A DNA stretch of 63,221 nucleotides, the filler included, from Reticulomyxa filosa (taxonomy: Eukaryota; Protista; Foraminifera), in assembly GCA_000512085.1 (NCBI GenBank). It is 18 parts of 18 records of this genome, joined end to end, with 100 filler letters (N's around TTAATTAATTAA, not from the genome) between each part and the next. Parts side by side here need not be neighbours in the genome. Positions count along the whole stretch, not along the records: positions 5,026 to 11,984 come from ASPP01022284.1; 17 more parts are not named here. The stretch is one strand, 5' to 3'. Made by a program: the position numbers and the translations under genes. Shown piece after piece: positions 5,026 to 42,488 of the stretch (position 1 is its first letter; each line of letters begins with the position of its first letter). Below the pieces are notes generated by a model that searched no databases, was not told the origin of the DNA, and saw nothing but the letters and a program-made list of their open reading frames with translations.

Positions 5026-5767
5026 GCAAATCAAACATTTTATTTGTTTGATTTGCAAAGAAATTGTAAACAATCCTATGGACATAAACTGTCCACATCA
5101 CGCAAATATGGATGAAGTGCTAATTGCTGGAGAGCATTGCCTAAAATTATTTCTCGAAAACAATAACAACTCTTGTCCAATTCAACCACATGACAACTGT
5201 CAGTATTCAAGAAATAACGCTGTGAGAAAATACATTGATGATTTGACAGTAATGTGCATAAGACAATTTGAACAAGATCTGAAAATATCACATGAAACTG
5301 AAGGTGAAGGAAAAACACCTGGGGTGATTAAATGTGGTTTTCATGGGAAATTAAAAGATTTAAATAATCATTTAATCAATGAATGCCCTTTGACCTTAAT
5401 CAATTGTTGGTTCAAACCATTTGGTTGCAATCATACATGCTTCAAACACAATTTAAAAGATCATCTAATCACAGACGTGAAATTACATTTTGATTTAGCG
5501 ACTCAATTATCACAATCCATGAAACAGGAAATTCAATCGAAAGATAAACAAATTATTGAAAAAGATAATCGAATTAAACAAATGGAAAGAGATTATCAAC
5601 AAGAGTTGCTCAAGTATCGTGCAGATATTGAAATGATTAAAAAAGATTCCAATGAGAAAGAAAAACAATTTTTATCTAATCATGAAAAAATAGTTAAAGT
5701 ATTGCAAGAGAAAAATGCCAAATTTACTCAAGATTATGAACAATTAATTCAAAAATTAAATCTTTAA
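5026..5767 (+). CDS. RING-like + TRAF-type zinc finger + coiled-coil protein, 5'-partial
   Basis: CLICKEIVNNPMDINCPHH...GEHCL...CPIQPH (RING-like); CGFHGKLKDLNNHLINECPLTLINCWFKPFGCNHTC...HL (TRAF-type finger); C-terminal coiled coil; no MATH domain before the stop. Confidence 0.75.
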
Positions 5768-6264
5768 CACAAAAAAAGAGGATCTGGTTTAAATGATTAT
5801 TACAAGCAATTGTGGCTGTCGCCACCTGAATAATGTTTTGCTTTCCATTTTTTAATTCAATTTCTTTGTATTGTTGTTTGATTAATTTTTTGGAATTTTT
5901 GTACTAAAATTGAATTTTGGTATTTGATACTTTTGAGAAAGCGGAAATGCATGTCAATGACAAAGAATGTGAACGCTAACACAAATGAAAAGATTTTGAA
6001 AAATACAAATGCAAACAGTTTTTGCATATAAAGTTGATTTCATGATAGAGATAAATAAATACAATTATTAATATCTTAAATCTAATTTATTTCCACAAAT
6101 AAAATATTTTTAAATTCTTTAAATTGTCTTAAGTTGTGTCATGTCTGCTACAGAGATTATACAAAGAAGCTTAATTGGAAAAAAGTACTTACCGATCAGA
6201 AGTTGTCCCAATAATAGCAAAAAAAAGATAAAATTATGCATTTTAGCCTACAAACAAATCAGCA

Positions 6265-6371
6265 ATGGCATTATGTGAAGAGAATCGATTTTCTCCGTGA
6301 AAAATAAAGATTTAAACCTAATTTTTTAAAAAATATCTAGTTTTTAAATATGAAATTGGTTTTATAATAAG
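6265..6371 (-). repeat. Dispersed AT-rich non-coding repeat, copy 1
   Basis: Reverse complement cttattataaaaccaatttcatatttaaaaacta...tttaaatctttatttttcacggagaaaatcgattctcttc closely matches 32906-33030. Confidence 0.8.
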
Positions 6372-7121
6372 TTTTTTCTATGTTGATCAAAAATATGATT
6401 TTTTAAAATGATTTTTAAAAATTTTGAAGTAGCTCATATAAATTTTAAAATCTTCTTGTTTTCATTTTAGGAATACTCAAGTCACGTAAATACTTTTTTA
6501 AAAAATAAGCATTGTATCTTTCGTAATTTTTAATAAAATTTGAAACCTTTTTTTGATTATTTCATTAAAAATTTTTTTGGTAATGTTTTTACCATTTTGT
6601 TGGTTTTCTTTGTACATTGATTAAAGTTTCAATTCTCCTTGGCATTGACTCAACTAGAACTTGACTAGTTGATTGTCAATTTTTTCCTATTTTTTTCAAA
6701 TTTTTCCCAAAGTTATTGTTTGTTAATTTTTTTGACTTTTTATAATTTTATTTTAATTATCCAACAAATTTTTTAAATTGGATTTATGCCCCATCCCAAT
6801 ATAATATTTAATTGCAAAAAAAATGTTAACGATTTTTTATTATTTTTCCCATGAATAAGCACATCAATATTTATATGGATTCATTTAGGGAATCTATCGA
6901 TTGTAATTGAATCTTTAATTTTATTAATGTCCTTTTTTGTTTATTTGTTTATTTACACAAATTTACATCAGCCTTTTTGGTGACTTATGGTGAACAATTT
7001 CACCTATTGCAATTTTTATTTGTTTTGTCTAATCATTTAAAGAAATTTATTTTGCTGTCAATAATAAGTATCATTGAGAACAAGCACTTATATATTTTTT
7101 ACAAGCAATAAATAAAAAAAA

Positions 7122-10100
7122 TCAAAATATTCCGCCACGCTGTTTCACAAGCAATTCTTGTAGAGATGTTAAACCTTTTGTATCTTTCCAAATACTACTT
7201 TTCATTGACAAACCACCTTGAGTGCCCACTTTCCAAATATAGTCTACTGAATTCTTTTCAGTTACGTCAATAATTTTACCATTATCACTACTCCATAATC
7301 GAATTGTTTTATCCTCTGAACATGAAGCTAATTTTGAACCATCAGGTGATATAACAATGTCGTTAATAGTCCCATTATGTCCTTCCAATAATTGGATCTG
7401 CTTTCCTGAAGATACATCCCATATTCGAATTGTTTTGTCGTCCGAACACGAAAAAATTTTAGAACCATCTGGGGATAATTGTATTCCGGATACTCGATCT
7501 GAATGTCCTTCTAATGTTTGAATCTTTTTCCCAGTTAATATATTCCAAAGTCGAATTGTATTATCTGCTGAGCAAGATACGATTTTAGTACTATCTGGAA
7601 AAAATTGTGCATCTAGTATACTCTTTTGATGTCCTCTAAACAATAAAATTTGACTTCCAGATGATGTATCCCATATTCGAATCGTTTCATCGCTTGAACA
7701 TGATATGATTTTAGTACCATCTGGAGAAAAGCGTACAGTATCTACACAATCTGTGTGCCCTTTTAATAATAAAAGTGGTTTCCAGACGATACATCCCATA
7801 CTCGAATTGTTTCGTCATCTGAACATGATACAATTTTAGATCTATCAGGCGAAATTTGCATGCTGTTTATCTCATCGGAATGTCCTTCCAATAATTGGAT
7901 CTGTCCTCCTGATGATATATCCCATATTCGAATTGTTTTATCCACTGAACATGACACAAGCTTGGAATCATCTGATAAAAATTGCATATCGTATATCACA
8001 TCAGAATGTCCTTTTAATAGTTGGAGCTGTTTTCCTGATAATATATCCCATATCCTGATTGTAGTATCATTTGAATACGACAAAATTTTGGAACCATCAA
8101 ATGAAAATAACGCTCCACGCACAATATTTGAATGACCTTTAAACACTTGAATATGTCTTCCTGATTGTGCATCCCATAATCGAATAGTGTTATTCGCAGA
8201 ACATGACACAATCTTAGAACTATCAGGAGAAAATTTTAAGCTCATTATGACGCCTAACTCTCCTTCTGTTAACTGGATTTTTTTTTCTACAGCTATATCC
8301 CATATACGAATAGTACCATCAAATGAGCATGACAAAATTTTTTGTTCATTTGAAAAAAATTCCACTTCAGTTATTTCACCCGAATGTCCTTCTAATTCTT
8401 GAATTTGTTTTCCAGATGACACATCCCATAGTCGGATTGTACCATCATCCGAGCCTGATACAATTTTAGAACCGTCAGATGAAAATCGTGATGTTTCTAC
8501 ACAGTCAATATGTCCTTTTAACGCTTGCAGTTGTTTTCCAGACAACAGATCCCATAATAGAAGAGTGGCATCATCTGAATATGACAATATTTTTGAACCA
8601 TCTGGTGAAAATTGAATTCCATTTATATTCTCGGTATGTCCTTCTAATATTTGAATTTGTTGACCTGATACTACATCCCATATTCGAATAGTTTTGTCAT
8701 TTGAGTATGATACAATATTTAATCCATTGGGTGTAAAGTGTACTCCATTCACACTGTCTGAATGTCCTTCAAATAATTGAAGCTGTGTTCCAGATGACAC
8801 ATCCCATATCCGTATGCTTTTATCGTCTGAACATGATACAATTTTGGAATAATCTGGTGAAAATTGCACTGTATTCACAGAATCTGAATGCCCTTCTAAT
8901 AACTTAACTTGTTCTCTAGATGACACATCCCATATCCTAATAGTTTTGTCATCTGAACTTGACACAATCTTAGAACAATCTAATGAAAATTGCGCAGCAG
9001 TTACATCCGATGAATGTCCTTTTAAAATTTGAATTTGTTGACCTGATAATACATCCCATATTCTAATAGTTTCATCACATGAGCATGATACAATTTTAGA
9101 TCCATCATGTGAAAACTGTACTCCACTTATGTCATCTGAATGTCCTTTCAATACACAAAGTTGGTTGCTTGACGCTGTGTCCCATATTCGAATAGTTTCA
9201 TCATCTGAATAGGATACTAATTTAGTTTTATCTGGTGAAAATTGAATTCCTCTTATTATATCTGAATGTCCTTCCAAGTTCGCATATTCTCCAAAGTAAA
9301 TATTGCTCATTGATGCATTTGTGAAATTGACTTTGGTTAAACAAGTTTGATAAAAACGCACATGGTCTAAATTTGCATTACTAAAATTGGTTCCTTCAAG
9401 GAAAGCACGATCCAAGATTGCATAAGGTATTTTTACATTGCTCCAATTTTGATAATTCATGTCGATATTAGCCGAATTGAGTATTGTAACTGCATTTGCT
9501 GCTGCAATACTAACATTGTCATTATTTTTTGATGATTCAATAATTCGAAATAATCTTGATTTTAAATTTACAAATATTGGATTATCGTCATGAATTCTTT
9601 CGGCAATAAATTGGATAATCCCTAATTCTTCATTTAATAGCTTACAATTAATAAATAATTTTTGAACATGTGTTTCAAATTGTTGTTGAAATTGTTGATT
9701 GTCAATAGTGACAATATCAGGTTTCCATGAAATGATATCAAATATAATTTTTTGTGCAGCATAATATTCTTGACATGATTTATGTACAAATTGATATTTA
9801 TTATCACCAACTCTTCTTAATACATACTTTGCAATACTCTCACCATTGAAATAGCTTTCCCATATATCCAGTGATTTTGTAACTGACGTTTTAGTGTCAT
9901 TTATTTTTATTGTTTTTGATACATTTTTAGTCACCTTGCCATTACGAACATATTTTTTCCAAAAACTTTGTGTTTTTGAAACAAAAGTGTCACTTTCATT
10001 CATTTTTAATTCTGTTTTTTCATTTTCATTTTTAGTCTCTATATCCATTGTTGGATCCAATTGACTCCAAATGTTATCAATTTCATATTCTTCACAATCA

Positions 10101-11984
10101 TTTTCTGTTGCAACTTGATTTCCTTGAATAAGCATTTCAAATCCTAGATTTTGACAATATTGATGAAATGCTGTTTTGATTTTTTTTGGATTTGTTTGAA
10201 TTCTTAATTCGAATAATTTATTTACAATATTTTTTACATGAATATCAATCCATTGTTCATTGAATGCTTCATAAACTTGTGATTTTGATATTTTAGTTCC
10301 AATGGAATGTTGTTTCATTAATGATGGTAACACAGTTAATATCATTCGAAGTAAAAATGGTTCTTCCATCATCTTATTTAAATTTGGATAATTTTTCAAT
10401 GTTGTTTTATATTGTCGTACTGTCCAATTCAAACTATTCTTCTTTTTTTTTTTTTTTATTCATTTTCACAAATTTATTAATATATCCATTCACTTGTCCT
10501 TTTGAAAAAGGCCATAAATATGTCATTGATGTTATTATTAAGTCCTTTGAACCAATTAAAACCTGTTTAATATCTCCATCATCTAATGCATGACTTCGAC
10601 AACTGACTATAATTTTTGCATTCCATTCATTTAAATTGAATCGATCATAAAAATATCTTTTATCATTATCATTTTTATTGTATTTGTCAAATATTTCATC
10701 AAATCCATCCAAAATAAATACAAATGAAATATTTTCACGAATAATATCAATTATCTCTTTATTGATTTGTTTCATTTGTAATGCTTGAGAAATGATTTGT
10801 TTTTCATTCAATTCATTATAACATTTTGGTAATGAAATATAAACAGGAATTGATATTGAAGGATCATTTGCATATAATTCCCACAATGCCTCTTCTAAAT
10901 GACGACAAAATAAACTTTTTCCTGACCCTGATTTTCCTTGCAATATTATCACTTGTTGTTTTTGTTGGTCATTTTTTTTTTCTTCTTTTTGTTCAGCTAA
11001 CAAATTAATTATATGTTGATGACAATCATATGAATCTTTTTTTTCATTGTCATCACCATCAGTATATGAATAATTGTTTGCTTGCAATGGTATATATGTT
11101 TCAAGTGCTTGCAATATAGTTGTATCTTCTTCTAATTCTTGTTTCCTTGATTCTTTTAATAATAATATAACTTCAGCACAACTTGTAGGATTCATTTCGC
11201 CCATAATGTATTTTTTAAAATATTCAAATAAAATAACATAAATAGCTTTCCCTTTCATTTCCTGTGGATTGAATTTACACAGTTGATCATAAACGAATTT
11301 AGTTAATTTTAATTGGATATCATTTTTGGAATTAATTTCTTCTTCAGTTATTCCTTTCAATTGAGGAGGTTTTAATATTCGAATTTCTGAATGTGGTTTG
11401 TAACGATTTGAGATTTTTTTGATTTCTTTTACATCAATCCATTCGCAGATTATATCATTGATTTTAGTTAATGTCTCATCACTTGTTTGTTTTAATTCTT
11501 CTTCTGATTGATTATTAGGTTTCCATGCTCGAATGTGTTCATAGAATAAATGACTTAATTTTGGATTTTCAATCACGGTATATCCTTCCAATGTTGTAAA
11601 ATTCTTCAATGTTGCTTGCATCTCAATATATACATCATGTTTTGGAACATACAATTTGATATTATGGAATCGATGATGTGTCTTTGATTGTTTACCAAAG
11701 AAATCTTTATCTTCAGACACAATCAAATTAAATTGTTCTGCTTTCTTCATAACTGTGACTGCAGTTTGCAATTTAGTTGAATTATCACATAAAATGGTAA
11801 ATCTTCCAATATCAAATGCTTGATTAAAGTCACCACCATAGTCTGCTTGAATCTTTTCCAATAATCTTTCATTTCCTTTTAAACTTGGTGGTTTCACAAC
11901 CGTAATATCATATTTCTGCAGTTCTGTCACCAAATTCTTTATTTCAATACTATTCATTGCACTTTCACTCCTTTCTCTCAAATC
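7122..11984 (-). CDS. NLR-like STAND protein: RelA/SpoT-like nucleotidyltransferase + NACHT + pentapeptide repeats + 16 WD40; possibly 5'-truncated; two homopolymer frameshifts
   Basis: ORFs 10434-11981, 7763-10432 and 7122-7799 join through single-base changes at an A15 run (~10443-10457) and an A3 run (~7779-7781). Walker A GKSGSGKS, Walker [15 protein letters not shown], pentapeptides [16 protein letters not shown], and 16 GH...WD repeats of 42 aa. No introns. Confidence 0.9.
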
Positions 11985-13926: not shown

Positions 13927-16761
13927 CTATTTCTCTGATTTCTTCCATGTTGCTTTGTCTTTCTCAACAAACGGTAATCCATAGATGACAGTGTCAACTA
14001 TTGCACACTCAAAAGCAACTTGTTCTCCCCGTGAAACTTTCTCGAAAAGGAAAAGCCAAAATAAGTTGATATTATCGTTGCAACATCGTAATTTTACAAA
14101 CTCCTTCATTTTTTCTTCATATTTTTTGTCATTGTATTTTTGCTCTTTCCATGTACAGAAATCCGACAAATATTCATGTATCTCATTAATATCGTCTTGG
14201 TTATGTTTTGCTAGCACATAAATGAGATTGAGGTCAATACAATGGCCCCATATTGCACTGATTTCCATAGTTTGTTGTAAATACTCATCATACTCGGTCC
14301 ATGTCAATAATATCATTTGTGTGTCTTCATCTTCGCTCTCTATTTTTGCATTCCACAATGCAATTCCTTTATGTCCATCTTTAACACTATTATAACAGGT
14401 AATCGATCTTGCGAATAAAATTTCACGTTCATGTTTGTATTCAGATATCCACGACACATCACAGCTTTTAATTCCAAATGCTCGTCTCATAGAAGGATGG
14501 AAATGTAAAATGCATCCCCGGTCAGATCTATACATTTTTGCAACTTGTAAATCATCAGAAGTACTTACATGGCTAACGAAATATCCAGCTTCAATCTTTG
14601 TGATGTCTTCCAATCTCACTTGTTTCAATCCACTATATAAATCTATGTTACTTTCTTCTCTCCTTTCATAATTATGCAAAATAGTGATAGCAGCATGTAA
14701 ATACATATCCAAACAAGTCCAGCGATCATGTTTAAAATTGATTTGGTCAGAACTGAAGCCAGTATTACATGATTTACTGCAATACAATACAATTGCACAA
14801 ATATGATATAATTGAAGTGGATATCCCATTTGTTTATGAATATTATTATGATACAATATCTTCAATTCTTTTAATATTGTTAATATTTTATCATTTAATA
14901 TCAATTTATCTGGATTCTTTTTATTATAATTAATATTTTGTTTGATTACATCTTTTCCTGTTCGTAGTACTTTTGTAGAAATTAAATCGGTCAAATAGCC
15001 ATTCTTTATTATTTCATGTAACAATTCTTTCAATTGATTATTGGTTGATGTCTGGAGTAAATACAATTTATCTTCAATAGCTTTAATTCGATCGAAGTCG
15101 TTTTCAAACAGTAATGGATTAAATTTTTCTTTTTTTGTCGAAACAGTTTTACCTTCACCAAAAGCACTTGCCAGCGGGGTATCGATTTGTACAGGGATTG
15201 TATACTCATAGGGCACCATGCAATAATATGTTATCTCCCAATAGACTGGAATATTTGGATAATTACGAATATGTTTATAAATATCATGTAATAATACATT
15301 TTCATTAATATTTGGAGGAATTGGTGGTACACATCTGTCAAATATACAGTCAAAATATATAATTTTTTCCATTCCATGTTTGAACTTTCTTAAAACCTGT
15401 AATTTTTGCTTTAATTGTTGAAGCGCTTGTTTCAACGTGATAGAATAAGGATTCAATGGCTCTCTGTGAAATTGAAATTTTCCACCCTCACCATTCCATA
15501 TTACACTAAATGAATTGAATCTCTGTGGACATAGATGTAACAAAATATTTGGTCGATATACAAGTAAAGATCTATTCATTCAAAATAATTGTTTTGTGTA
15601 AACTTGTTAACTGAGCAGCTGTTTGATAAGAGCATGCAATCAGTCCAATCGAATGTGCGAAAATGCCAAGACTTGTTGAGGATGATATCGCACCACATGG
15701 TATGTGTGAGATCGTCAGTGGAGAAGTAATTTTGCCATTGAATGTCGACATTTAATTCCAATGATTTTTTCTTTGGATTTCCAACTTGTAATGATTTTAC
15801 CCTCAATGTTGTTTCGTCCAATAACATAATTGTTCGATGTTGATAATCAAACGCAATTTTATAATCTTTCCATGTTTTATTCTTCTTCATGCGTATCGTT
15901 TTTGGAATACCAAATATTTGTCTGTATCTATGTATGCAGCACAAGCCTAAGATGTTTTTGTCATTTTATTTGCAAATGCAAATAAATAATTGAAACACAG
16001 TACAATACATCAATTGATCATTGATGACACTTTGATAGCATTTCCACAATTTCTCTACGTTCATATTTTGGAAATACCAGTTCCCGTCATTGCCTTTATC
16101 GAAGCCGATTTTTTGCAAATAAATGGTCATATCAGCAAGTATGTCATCGATATTTTCATTTAATTTCTGGCATTTGTCTTGCAAATTTCGCAACAATGCA
16201 TTGTTGTCGATTTGACGGTATTTCGTTTTTGTAGGAAAATTTAACAGATTCCATAACACGTCCAAACATATTTCACGCGTTATTTTCAGATCGTTTTCTT
16301 CTTCAATTCTATGATAGACAAGCTATAAGCTCATTTATTTTTTTTTAACACTCCGTCCTGTGTGTGTGTGTGTGTGACCACAAAGTTTAACTCATTGATG
16401 TCCATGACGAAGGACATTTCAACTAATTTTCCAGTAGTATCACCGAACGCTCTATCAGATGCGTTCCAAGACTCTAAAATTTGCTCTTTGGAGAGACAAT
16501 CACCAAATATTTGCAGCAATTGCATTAATATTTTTTGCTGCTCAGGAGAAGTGCTGAAATTTAACAATTATTTCATGATTTGTAAAACAAGAACTGCAAA
16601 AGATATTCACAGAATCGTAACCTGTTCTTGCTAATAAAATTCAAGATTTCGACTGTTTCGTCTACGTCTTTTTTACGCCAAGTCCATACTTGAAAAATGA
16701 TCTCTTTGTCTAGATTTTTGAAATCTTTTTGAAGGCGCTGAAAATAATCCGAGGAAGTCAT
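13927..16761 (-). CDS. Five-exon protein: two CUE-like domains, PUB domain, C-terminal R-S-E-type ADP-ribosyltransferase domain
   Basis: Introns at 16554-16621, 16309-16391, ~15928-16008 and ~15523-15611 splice in frame. PUB-like LDVLWNLLNFPTKTKYRQIDNNAL...LQKIGF. ART motifs LYSGL (~14630), HVSTS (~14560), and DVSWISEYKHEREILF (~14415-14460). Confidence 0.75.
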
Positions 16762-41810: not shown

Positions 41811-42298
41811 TCAATAAAAAATAATATTATCCCCAAAGATAAATAAGACCATTGCCTGCACCATAACACAGTTCAATACCATTACCTTTATTTTTTCTGT
41901 TTTTTTTAATTGTATAAATTTAAGACACATTATCCCTTTTTTCCAGTCATCTTCTTTGATTGTATACAGTTCATTTTTATTGGATCGAATATCCCAAAAT
42001 CGAATCGTATCATCATCTGATCCAGAACATATCACATTTGAACTAGTACCAACTTCACTATTATTCACTACAAATGGTGAATATTCAACATACCATATAA
42101 AATGTGTATGTCCATTGAATTGTTGAATTTGTTGACATGATCGAATATCCCACAAACGAACGCTTTGATCATCTGATCCAGATAATATTGTATTTGCACA
42201 TCCAATATTTCCTAATTCATTTGATCCATATTTTATACTCCTCACTGTATTTTCATGTTCTTTGAATACATTCAATTGTTTGGTTGTTTCAATATCCC
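41811..42298 (-). CDS. WD40-repeat protein, 3' fragment, frameshifted near the end
   Basis: ILSGSDDQSVRLWDIRS, FNGHTHFIWYVEYSP, and ICSGSDDDTIRFWDIR. Confidence 0.85.
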
Positions 42299-42488
42299 NN
42301 NNNNNNNNNNNNNNNNNNNNNNNNNNNNNNNNNNNNNNNNNNTTAATTAATTAANNNNNNNNNNNNNNNNNNNNNNNNNNNNNNNNNNNNNNNNNNNNAA
42401 AGAGAGAGAACAAAAAGAGAAAGAACTTGCACTTGACATACATATATATACATATATGTATATGTATACGTACATAAAAAGTCTTGCA

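Follow-up and report, generated by a model that had tools for sequence, protein, structure and literature searches.

What is encoded by the minus-strand gene at positions 7122-11984 of a 63,221-nucleotide stretch of DNA from the foraminiferan Reticulomyxa filosa (assembly GCA_000512085.1; the whole stretch is called the window below), and what would a RelA/SpoT-type enzyme domain do in it? A first, sequence-only reading had proposed a receptor resembling NOD-like receptors (NLRs), in which such a domain is followed by a NACHT domain, pentapeptide repeats and sixteen WD40 repeats. Our analysis supports this tripartite NLR-like build, with variable positions in the WD40 repeats. We incline, with somewhat more confidence than doubt, to the view that the gene belongs to a family of NLR-like genes combining a Tas1/Apk-like synthetase with NACHT, pentapeptide and WD40 modules, whose intact members would be non-self sensors carrying out a ligand-triggered 3'-pyrophosphorylation of an adenosine-type acceptor. 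We infer both the enzyme activity and the immune role.

Architecture of the gene and its paralogue family

All RelA/SpoT homologue (RSH) motifs quoted in the sequence-only reading lie on the minus strand, each where that reading had placed it (Table 1). The NACHT domain scored 39 bits against a Pfam cut-off of 26.7, has intact Walker A (GKSGSGKS) and Walker B (FILDGFDE) motifs and shares one open frame (10434-11984) with the synthetase. The predicted succession of NACHT, pentapeptide and WD40 modules was also recovered, with 16 WD40 repeats in two blocks of 12 and 4. The claimed connection between synthetase and NACHT, seen here within a single frame, recurs among the predicted paralogues, since 38 of the 54 long models unite the catalytic span, Walker A and five or more WD motifs in a single protein.

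These paralogues were collected with residues 8-200 of the synthetase open reading frame (ORF) as query, which returned 54 long and 56 medium-length proteins. All of these 110 homologues except two metagenome records are labelled R. filosa, and the closest paralogue domain is 96% identical to the domain at 11500-11984. The rows are 90%-identity clusters from a fragmented assembly and the proteins are database gene models, so that the number of about 100 loci is an estimate. We conclude that this is a real, large and conserved family; new about it are the Apk-like enzyme on the RelA_SpoT-NLR build and a likely link to symbionts.

Of 83 rows in which the synthetase is nearly complete, 70 have a cysteine motif (GxNLxGxC), marking a Zn-type domain, upstream of it. 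This domain was modelled confidently, found no fold match among the Foldseek matches listed and reached no Pfam family above cut-off. A UBA/CUE-like N-terminus of the paralogues, guessed by eye, was dropped as it had no Pfam support.

Three proteins deviate from the common build. In the R. filosa protein P0048 (1017 aa) the Zn-type domain and the synthetase occur and NACHT is absent; by eye, a signal-peptide-like start is followed by extracellular repeats, a transmembrane-like helix and a coiled coil, and it is possible that P0048 is a surface receptor with the same output as the NACHT family. P0002 carries the Zn-type domain and the synthetase duplicated in tandem, with a degenerate first copy. 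In P0112 the synthetase is joined straight to WD40 repeats, NACHT being absent, and this fusion may reflect recombination or an artefact of the gene model.

Predicted fold and affiliation of the synthetase domain

The Pfam family RelA_SpoT (PF04607, cut-off 27 bits) scored 16.9 bits within the ORF and 21.1 bits with the domain alone (E=4e-4), and three of 12 paralogues scanned reached the cut-off (P0085, P0072 and the two-copy P0002). PHROGs and NCBIfam scans of the domain at 11500-11984 contributed nothing. In sequence searches of the PDB, Tas1 ranked first with a single sequence (E=0.12), was the sole match of a 13-row family profile (E=3.7e-4) and headed the matches of a mixed profile to which distant homologues had been added (E=8e-26), followed by RelP, Rel and RelQ. 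Structure prediction led to the same protein. The top Foldseek match of an AlphaFold2 (AF2) model of residues 1-197 (predicted local distance difference test, pLDDT, 82) was Tas1 (6OX6, E=1.2e-7), and so was that of paralogue P0072 (pLDDT 77, E=2.8e-6), modelled from an alignment of foraminiferan-type homologues only, with the exported synthetase SaEAS as second match. All 30 Foldseek matches listed for the residues 1-197 model are RSH-family or GTP-pyrophosphokinase-type structures (template modelling scores of about 0.4-0.57). The RSH fold expected by the sequence-only reading was therefore recovered, and the domain is predicted to be an RSH-fold synthetase nearest to the Tas1/Apk clade of (p)ppApp synthetases. 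The earlier RelA/SpoT-type identity thus stands as far as the RSH synthetase is concerned and is refined to this clade rather than to housekeeping RelA/SpoT.

Apk enzymes are characterised by the signatures RYT in syn2, GxN in syn3 and YH in syn4 (PMC12226406). The motifs of the R. filosa family lean towards this type, with R-F-T in syn2, Asn at the GxN position of syn3 and a syn4 without Arg; its RFT/FxN/AT is only a partial match to the Apk signature, and none of the three is of the RSH type.

A search for distant homologues gave 110 matches among 1.84 billion representatives. Among 57 of them that were scanned, carriers were eCIS_core (3), Phage_Mu_F (1) and portal (1), and other partners comprised TPR, LRR, DUF285, ankyrin-NACHT and NACHT-WD40. 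Extracellular contractile injection systems (eCIS, DUF4157) and MuF have been described as carriers of Apk-like enzymes (PMC12691689). The raw jackhmmer matches of Tas1 given in PMC10083569 (Dataset S1) include at least 118 R. filosa rows, and all 24 NACHT-named rows among the matches listed are from R. filosa; the main text of that paper, as far as available, never names the species. Four of 20 distant homologues looked up bear eukaryote names (Proboscia alata, Triparma laevis, a dinoflagellate and Guillardia theta), and 10 further ones added no eukaryote name. Apk-like domains with intact GYRD-type loops were also noticed in eukaryote-like TPR, LRR, kinase and DUF285 proteins (P0137, P0141, P0153, P0160, P0172, P0173, P0180, P0183, P0142, P0149, P0144 and P0178), some of them from Triparma, Guillardia and a dinoflagellate. 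A diatom protein of the NACHT-WD40 type, P0175 from Proboscia alata (1394 aa), appears to carry its Apk-like domain within the NACHT module; this fusion probably arose independently.

Conservation of the catalytic core

The sequence-only reading had stated that the catalytic Asp and Glu are retained, and both are kept across the family, D57 in 93 of the 94 rows that cover it and E120 in 90 of 96. The other residues behave similarly (K35 91/94, R39 87/94, K43 91/94, R60 91/94, Q122 92/99), and 71 of the 82 rows with coverage keep all eight core residues (K35, R39, K43, D57, R60, E120, Q122 and H144); several of the other 11 have gaps in their gene models. When 33 full-length paralogues are compared in pairs, median identity is highest in the synthetase (81%), compared with 62-72% in six other regions (NACHT 65%, linker 62%, Zn-type domain 63%), and the synthetase exceeds NACHT in 494 of 528 paralogue pairs.

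Variable positions in the putative WD40 sensor

Variability in the WD40 repeats is concentrated at a few positions. In 429 of the 445 repeats found, those with GH in register, entropy counted from the G of GH peaks at +5 (4.0 bits), +23 (3.9), +7 (3.4) and +4 (3.2), while many framework positions stay below 0.8 bits and are nearly fixed. The same pattern is seen within the 16 repeats of the copy at 7250-9274. Fungal NWD repeats are reported to vary at four sites of their binding face (PMC4986451), and the variability of the foraminiferan repeats, as judged from sequence, resembles these few diversifying positions. The variable positions may well be the same ones.

Relatives in bacteria and candidate symbionts

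The closest relatives of both the NACHT and the synthetase domains are signal-peptide proteins, some of them of small-genome Bacteroidota. The metagenome protein P0135 has a signal-peptide-like start, ankyrin repeats, a synthetase and NACHT, with the same synthetase-NACHT order, and its alignment with the paralogue P0003 spans 835 columns (E=2e-71). By its NACHT domain it is related to NACHT-pentapeptide-WD40 proteins from a Bacteroidota metagenome-assembled genome (MAG; L007), P0214 (labelled Bacteroidota), Mycoavidus, Legionellales, Mortierellaceae and Hexamita. In a quick IQ-TREE of 55 NACHT rows, R. filosa is sister to the group of P0135, L007 and P0214 (SH-like approximate likelihood ratio test, SH-aLRT, 96). 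In a quick synthetase tree of 65 rows, from which 18 near-duplicates or long branches were left out, R. filosa groups with P0130, P0131 and P0135 (SH-aLRT 91), and FastTree gave this grouping, P0146 included, a support of 0.93. These relationships make it likely that the synthetase-NACHT module has passed, in either direction, between R. filosa and Bacteroidota symbionts with small genomes.

The genome containing L007 measures 0.9 Mb and has 7 NACHT matches; its family, conceivably the Amoebophilaceae, comprises 48 genomes, mostly of 0.6-1.9 Mb, and the NACHT genes at L007 and L098 lie amid bacterial genes on long contigs. In five symbiont genomes the synthetase profile gave only weak matches (E 1e-9 to 5e-5); the frames concerned are 590-756 aa long and probably encode ordinary long RSH enzymes. 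A genome scan with P0135 alone found no relative in 138 stretches. Metagenome scans confirmed none of 100 stretches with the family profile and none of 383 with the P0130/P0135/P0131 alignment, so that these three proteins stand without genomic context.

Two NACHT genes of the 0.9-Mb Bacteroidota MAG (L007 2755-9888 and L098 5314-13116) encode signal-peptide-like NACHT-pentapeptide-WD40 proteins of 2,400-2,600 aa. In the L007 protein the WD40 repeats are nearly identical and the end is CaaX-like, the L098 protein seems by eye to end in a RanBP2-like zinc finger, and both genes are flanked by repeated AAA-ATPase-like genes. The related metagenome NACHT proteins P0211 and P0213 bear a caspase (PF00656) or PARP (PF00644, precomputed) domain; the effector slot of the NACHT chassis therefore appears exchangeable. 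On another contig of the window, a 550-aa ORF (13927-15579, minus strand) looks ADP-ribosyltransferase-like (ART-like) by eye (LYSG...STS...ExE) and scored above cut-off with no Pfam family. A domain within the Bacteroidota NACHT-WD40 proteins of L007 (32% identity over 256 aa, E=1e-22) and L098 (E=7e-20) resembles this ORF, which is, by sequence similarity, a second domain family common to the protist and the same bacterium.

Proposed mechanism and alternatives

By analogy with signal-transducing STAND ATPases and NLRs, a ligand would bind the variable face of two WD40 propellers, whereupon the NACHT domain would swap ADP and ATP and oligomerise, and the N-terminal synthetase would thereby be released or clustered. 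Its kinship with Apk suggests that ATP would then donate pyrophosphate to ATP, ADP, AMP or a related 3'-OH acceptor, which would drain ATP locally. In a multinucleate reticulopodial cell, the infected or incompatible sector might be sacrificed, or nucleotide-importing intracellular bacteria might be starved.

Several observations weigh against this view, the first of them at the acceptor site. The sequence-only reading had pointed out that the Gly-Tyr of the acceptor loop is replaced by two histidines, and this holds for the copy (H102/H103) as well as for the family, in which the His-loop is dominant. The G-Y loop of syn3 with its stacking Tyr is thus absent: the Tyr position is His in 83 and Tyr in 12 of 99 paralogue rows, Gly is none of the top residues listed at the G position, and Phe occupies position 105 in 88 of 99 rows. 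Among 67 distant homologues the loop is mostly Gly-Tyr-Arg-Asp, with Asp at position 105 in 55 and His at the stacking position in just one. Loss of the acceptor-stacking Tyr abolishes the toxicity of FaRel2 (10.1101/2021.04.30.441581), Apk-like relatives yield (p)ppApp, (p)ppGpp or both (PMC12691689), and swapping of motifs failed to switch specificity (PMC12226406). With the Tyr lost and a Phe in the pocket across the family, any assignment of a product, and even of activity, is tentative. Moreover, the conservation of the synthetase may be inflated by its use as the query with which the paralogues were gathered, and gene conversion could homogenise it, the correlation between synthetase and NACHT distances being only 0.48. 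The WD40 repeats of the copy have a median identity of 54% (maximum 77%), unlike the highly conserved repeats of HNWD proteins. As to the symbionts, both trees are quick ones without bootstrap, P0130, P0131 and P0135 carry no taxon label, and the synthetase profile (E<=1e-8) matched none of the 48 genomes of the candidate symbiont family. Finally, the paralogue proteins are gene models, and the reading is built on sequence and predicted structure.

The remodelled loop bears on two other explanations. The domain could be an active RSH-fold transferase with another acceptor or product, such as (p)ppGpp, tRNA or RNA 3' ends or a new nucleotide, and act as a second messenger or by a translation block, not as an ATP-draining toxin. 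We regard this as a minority reading, though one to be taken seriously. It would fit the fixation of the loop THHRFHN in 75 of 106 paralogue rows while the ATP and Mg residues are kept, the (p)ppGpp makers among Apk-like relatives (PMC12691689) and the tRNA-modifying toxic small alarmone synthetases (toxSAS), which have no clear sequence signature (10.1101/2021.04.30.441581); P0048, in which the Zn-type domain and the synthetase are joined to a build that resembles, by eye, a membrane-spanning signalling receptor, points the same way. However, the syn2, syn3 and syn4 positions lean towards Apk, and CapRel ranked far under Tas1 in the fold searches (rank 36 with the residues 1-197 model, 28 with the P0072 model).

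Alternatively, with the G-Y acceptor motif lost and a bulky Phe in the pocket, the domain might be a pseudo-enzyme, that is a nucleotide-binding or decoy module which controls NACHT and detects alarmones, immunity proteins or bacterial effectors, in the style of the integrated domain apparent in P0175. This seems improbable to us, as the donor-ATP and metal residues are kept in the 71 of 82 rows mentioned above, no other part of the protein is as well conserved, and the place of the domain N-terminal of NACHT is that of the effector in fungal NLRs. The ligand-triggered synthetase described at the outset remains the reading that we favour.

Comparison with known systems

Apk1/Tas1 (6OX6), Apk2 (the MuF toxins) and SaEAS (8VX3) provide the top sequence and fold matches and have the motifs KxxxRxxEK...DYxGD, DxxRxT, ExQ and H-x-x-YE-x-x-R in common with the domain. 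In contrast to them, the R. filosa proteins are eukaryotic and predicted to be cytoplasmic, are fused to NACHT-WD40 instead of PAAR, MuF, LXG or eCIS carriers, have the loop HHRFHN instead of GYxGxN or GYRD, and no immunity gene was seen; in Pfam scans, neither PAAR nor MuF matched the paralogue N-termini examined. According to PMC11699363, work on Apk2 has been confined to bacteria, and a 2025 Apk survey is, in its available parts, likewise limited to them, with no R. filosa rows in its 6 supplements.

Among the tRNA-pyrophosphorylating toxSAS (CapRel, FaRel2 and PhRel2), which have the same superfamily fold and rank below Tas1, CapRel is a sensor-fused toxin. The R. filosa domain differs from them in that the conserved Tyr is missing and no antitoxin domain was recognised. 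Divergent synthetases have been described in Dictyostelium, fungi and diatoms (PMC3153485), and RelA domains act as effectors in bacterial conflict systems (PMC7159879).

The sequence-only reading had named RelA_SpoT N-termini as a rare class among fungal NLRs, which agrees with their share of less than 1% of annotations in PMC4986451 and, elsewhere, with about 17 of 4,600 Sordariales NLRs when calculated from percentages, compared with about 100 copies in R. filosa. A RELA_SPOT-NACHT-WD40 protein was reported in Gaeumannomyces (Dyrka et al. 2014, PMC4986451), and RelA_SpoT is treated as a rare fungal effector class in PMC4986451, PMC10197012, 10.1101/2022.03.16.484565 and 10.1101/2024.11.26.625400. 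These fungal NLRs have the same domain order and are named at the Pfam level only; unlike them, the R. filosa NACHT groups with NACHT-pentapeptide-WD40 proteins of the symbiont and Mortierellaceae type. The latter, from Mycoavidus, Legionellales, small-genome Bacteroidota, Mortierellaceae and Hexamita, have a homologous chassis from NACHT to pentapeptide repeats (24-35% identity to P0003 over ~500-600 aa) with varying N-termini (caspase, ankyrin, ARM or ART-like), and the synthetase occurs in P0135 alone among those examined.

The HNWD proteins of Podospora (HET-E, HET-D, HET-R and NWD2) likewise consist of effector, NACHT and WD40 repeats with few highly variable positions per repeat. R. filosa differs by its enzyme effector in place of HET, its pentapeptide spacer and the lower identity of its repeats, and a Pfam scan of the gene at 7122-11984 gave no HET match. 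The family is filed neither as Apk1/Apk2 nor as HNWD. The literature searched, which did not extend to subscription papers, contained no paper on Reticulomyxa NACHT proteins or on this synthetase family.

Implications

Known outputs of NLRs are pores, amyloids, proteases, NADases, nucleases and nucleosidases; an alarmone synthetase as output has, to our knowledge, only been annotated, in rare fungal genes. If the predicted activity holds, sensing of a foreign molecule would likely set off a nucleotide-based defence in a giant single-celled protist. More broadly, and only tentatively, foraminifera might hold a hundred-member diversified repertoire of immune receptors whose output is (p)ppApp or a new 3'-pyrophosphorylated product and whose module has been traded with Bacteroidota endosymbionts; the algal Apk-like TPR, LRR and NACHT-WD40 proteins would then mark an overlooked nucleotide-based immunity of protists. 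A domain of 150-200 aa makes it testable whether (p)ppApp-type nucleotides occur in eukaryotes outside plastids. It also bears on how a giant syncytial protist defends itself or separates self from non-self, and suggests that genes have travelled between foraminifera and their uncultured Bacteroidota symbionts.

State of the assembled copy

The copy at 7122-11984 is broken as assembled. Two 1-base frameshifts, both downstream of the NACHT core, spread the gene over three ORFs (Table 1). The window is made up of short contigs with N44-TTAATTAATTAA-N44 linkers between them; the gene leaves its contig at 11984, so that the upstream ~130-490 aa of the long paralogues are missing here. The architecture given in the sequence-only reading holds; that reading had left the contig-end truncation and the frameshifts of this copy unmentioned. 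Introns were considered as the cause of both breaks, as GT-AG pairs lie nearby; 1-base indels are preferred because the paralogues are colinear across both breaks without an insert.

These breaks raise the question of whether the copy is a pseudogene of a recently amplified, mostly decaying repeat family of symbiont origin with no role in host defence. The two frameshifts, the many partial or truncated paralogue models and the resemblance of the nearest relatives to exported symbiont proteins would agree with such decay. We nevertheless consider it very improbable, since domain-specific conservation together with position-specific WD40 variability would hardly arise under neutral decay, 33 paralogue models are longer than 1600 aa, and close relatives (43-67% identity) also occur in the metagenome records P0085 and P0100. 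Moreover, each break falls within a homopolymer, a frequent site of read errors, and the R. filosa assembly was presumably built from 454 reads.

Table 1. Positions of the gene and its parts in the window.
Feature	Position	Strand	Remarks
Contig with gene	5026..11984	.	5' part of gene lost at 11984; tblastn matches of paralogues P0003/P0004 start at 11984
RelA/SpoT-type synthetase, closest to Tas1/Apk1 (predicted)	11500..11984	-	K35, R39, K43, D57, R60, K92, E120, Q122, H144
PSLKG	11888-11874	-	Synthetase motif
RLLEK	11867-11853	-	Synthetase motif
DYGGD	11843-11829	-	Synthetase motif
FDIGRFT	11816-11796	-	Contains D57
KDFF	11708-11697	-	Synthetase motif
THHRFHN	11681-11661	-	Acceptor loop
IEMQAT	11627-11610	-	Contains E120
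HLFYE	11552-11538	-	Synthetase motif
Helical linker, synthetase to NACHT	10953..11499	-	Without Pfam match; confident helical bundle in paralogue model
NACHT P-loop core	10467..10952	-	Pfam PF05729 E=9.5e-10; Walker A 10937-10914, Walker B 10718-10692
Frameshift 1, 15-base A run	10443..10457	-	Paralogues in frame through region
NACHT-associated helical, winged-helix and arm region	9461..10426	-	FVHKSCQEY at 9790-9764; colinear with P0003 and, via P0003, with P0135; no Pfam family in Pfam scan
Pentapeptide repeats	9281..9460	-	Pfam PF00805 E=2.3e-9
WD40 repeats 1-12	7775..9274	-	Domain scan and repeat analysis
Frameshift 2, 3-base A run, end of WD40 repeat 12	7778..7781 (about 7779-7781)	-	tblastn frame change; sequence
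WD40 repeats 13-16	7250..7772	-	Domain scan and repeat analysis
C-terminal tail and stop	7122..7249	-	Similar tail by eye in paralogues, P0209 and L007 protein

Neighbouring ORFs were rejected as functional partners; they lie on other contigs, except for a TRAF-type zinc-finger ORF at the opposite end of the same contig (4982-5767, plus strand; Pfam E=3e-6). A short, unrelated WD40 fragment lies at a contig end at 41811-42350 on the minus strand.

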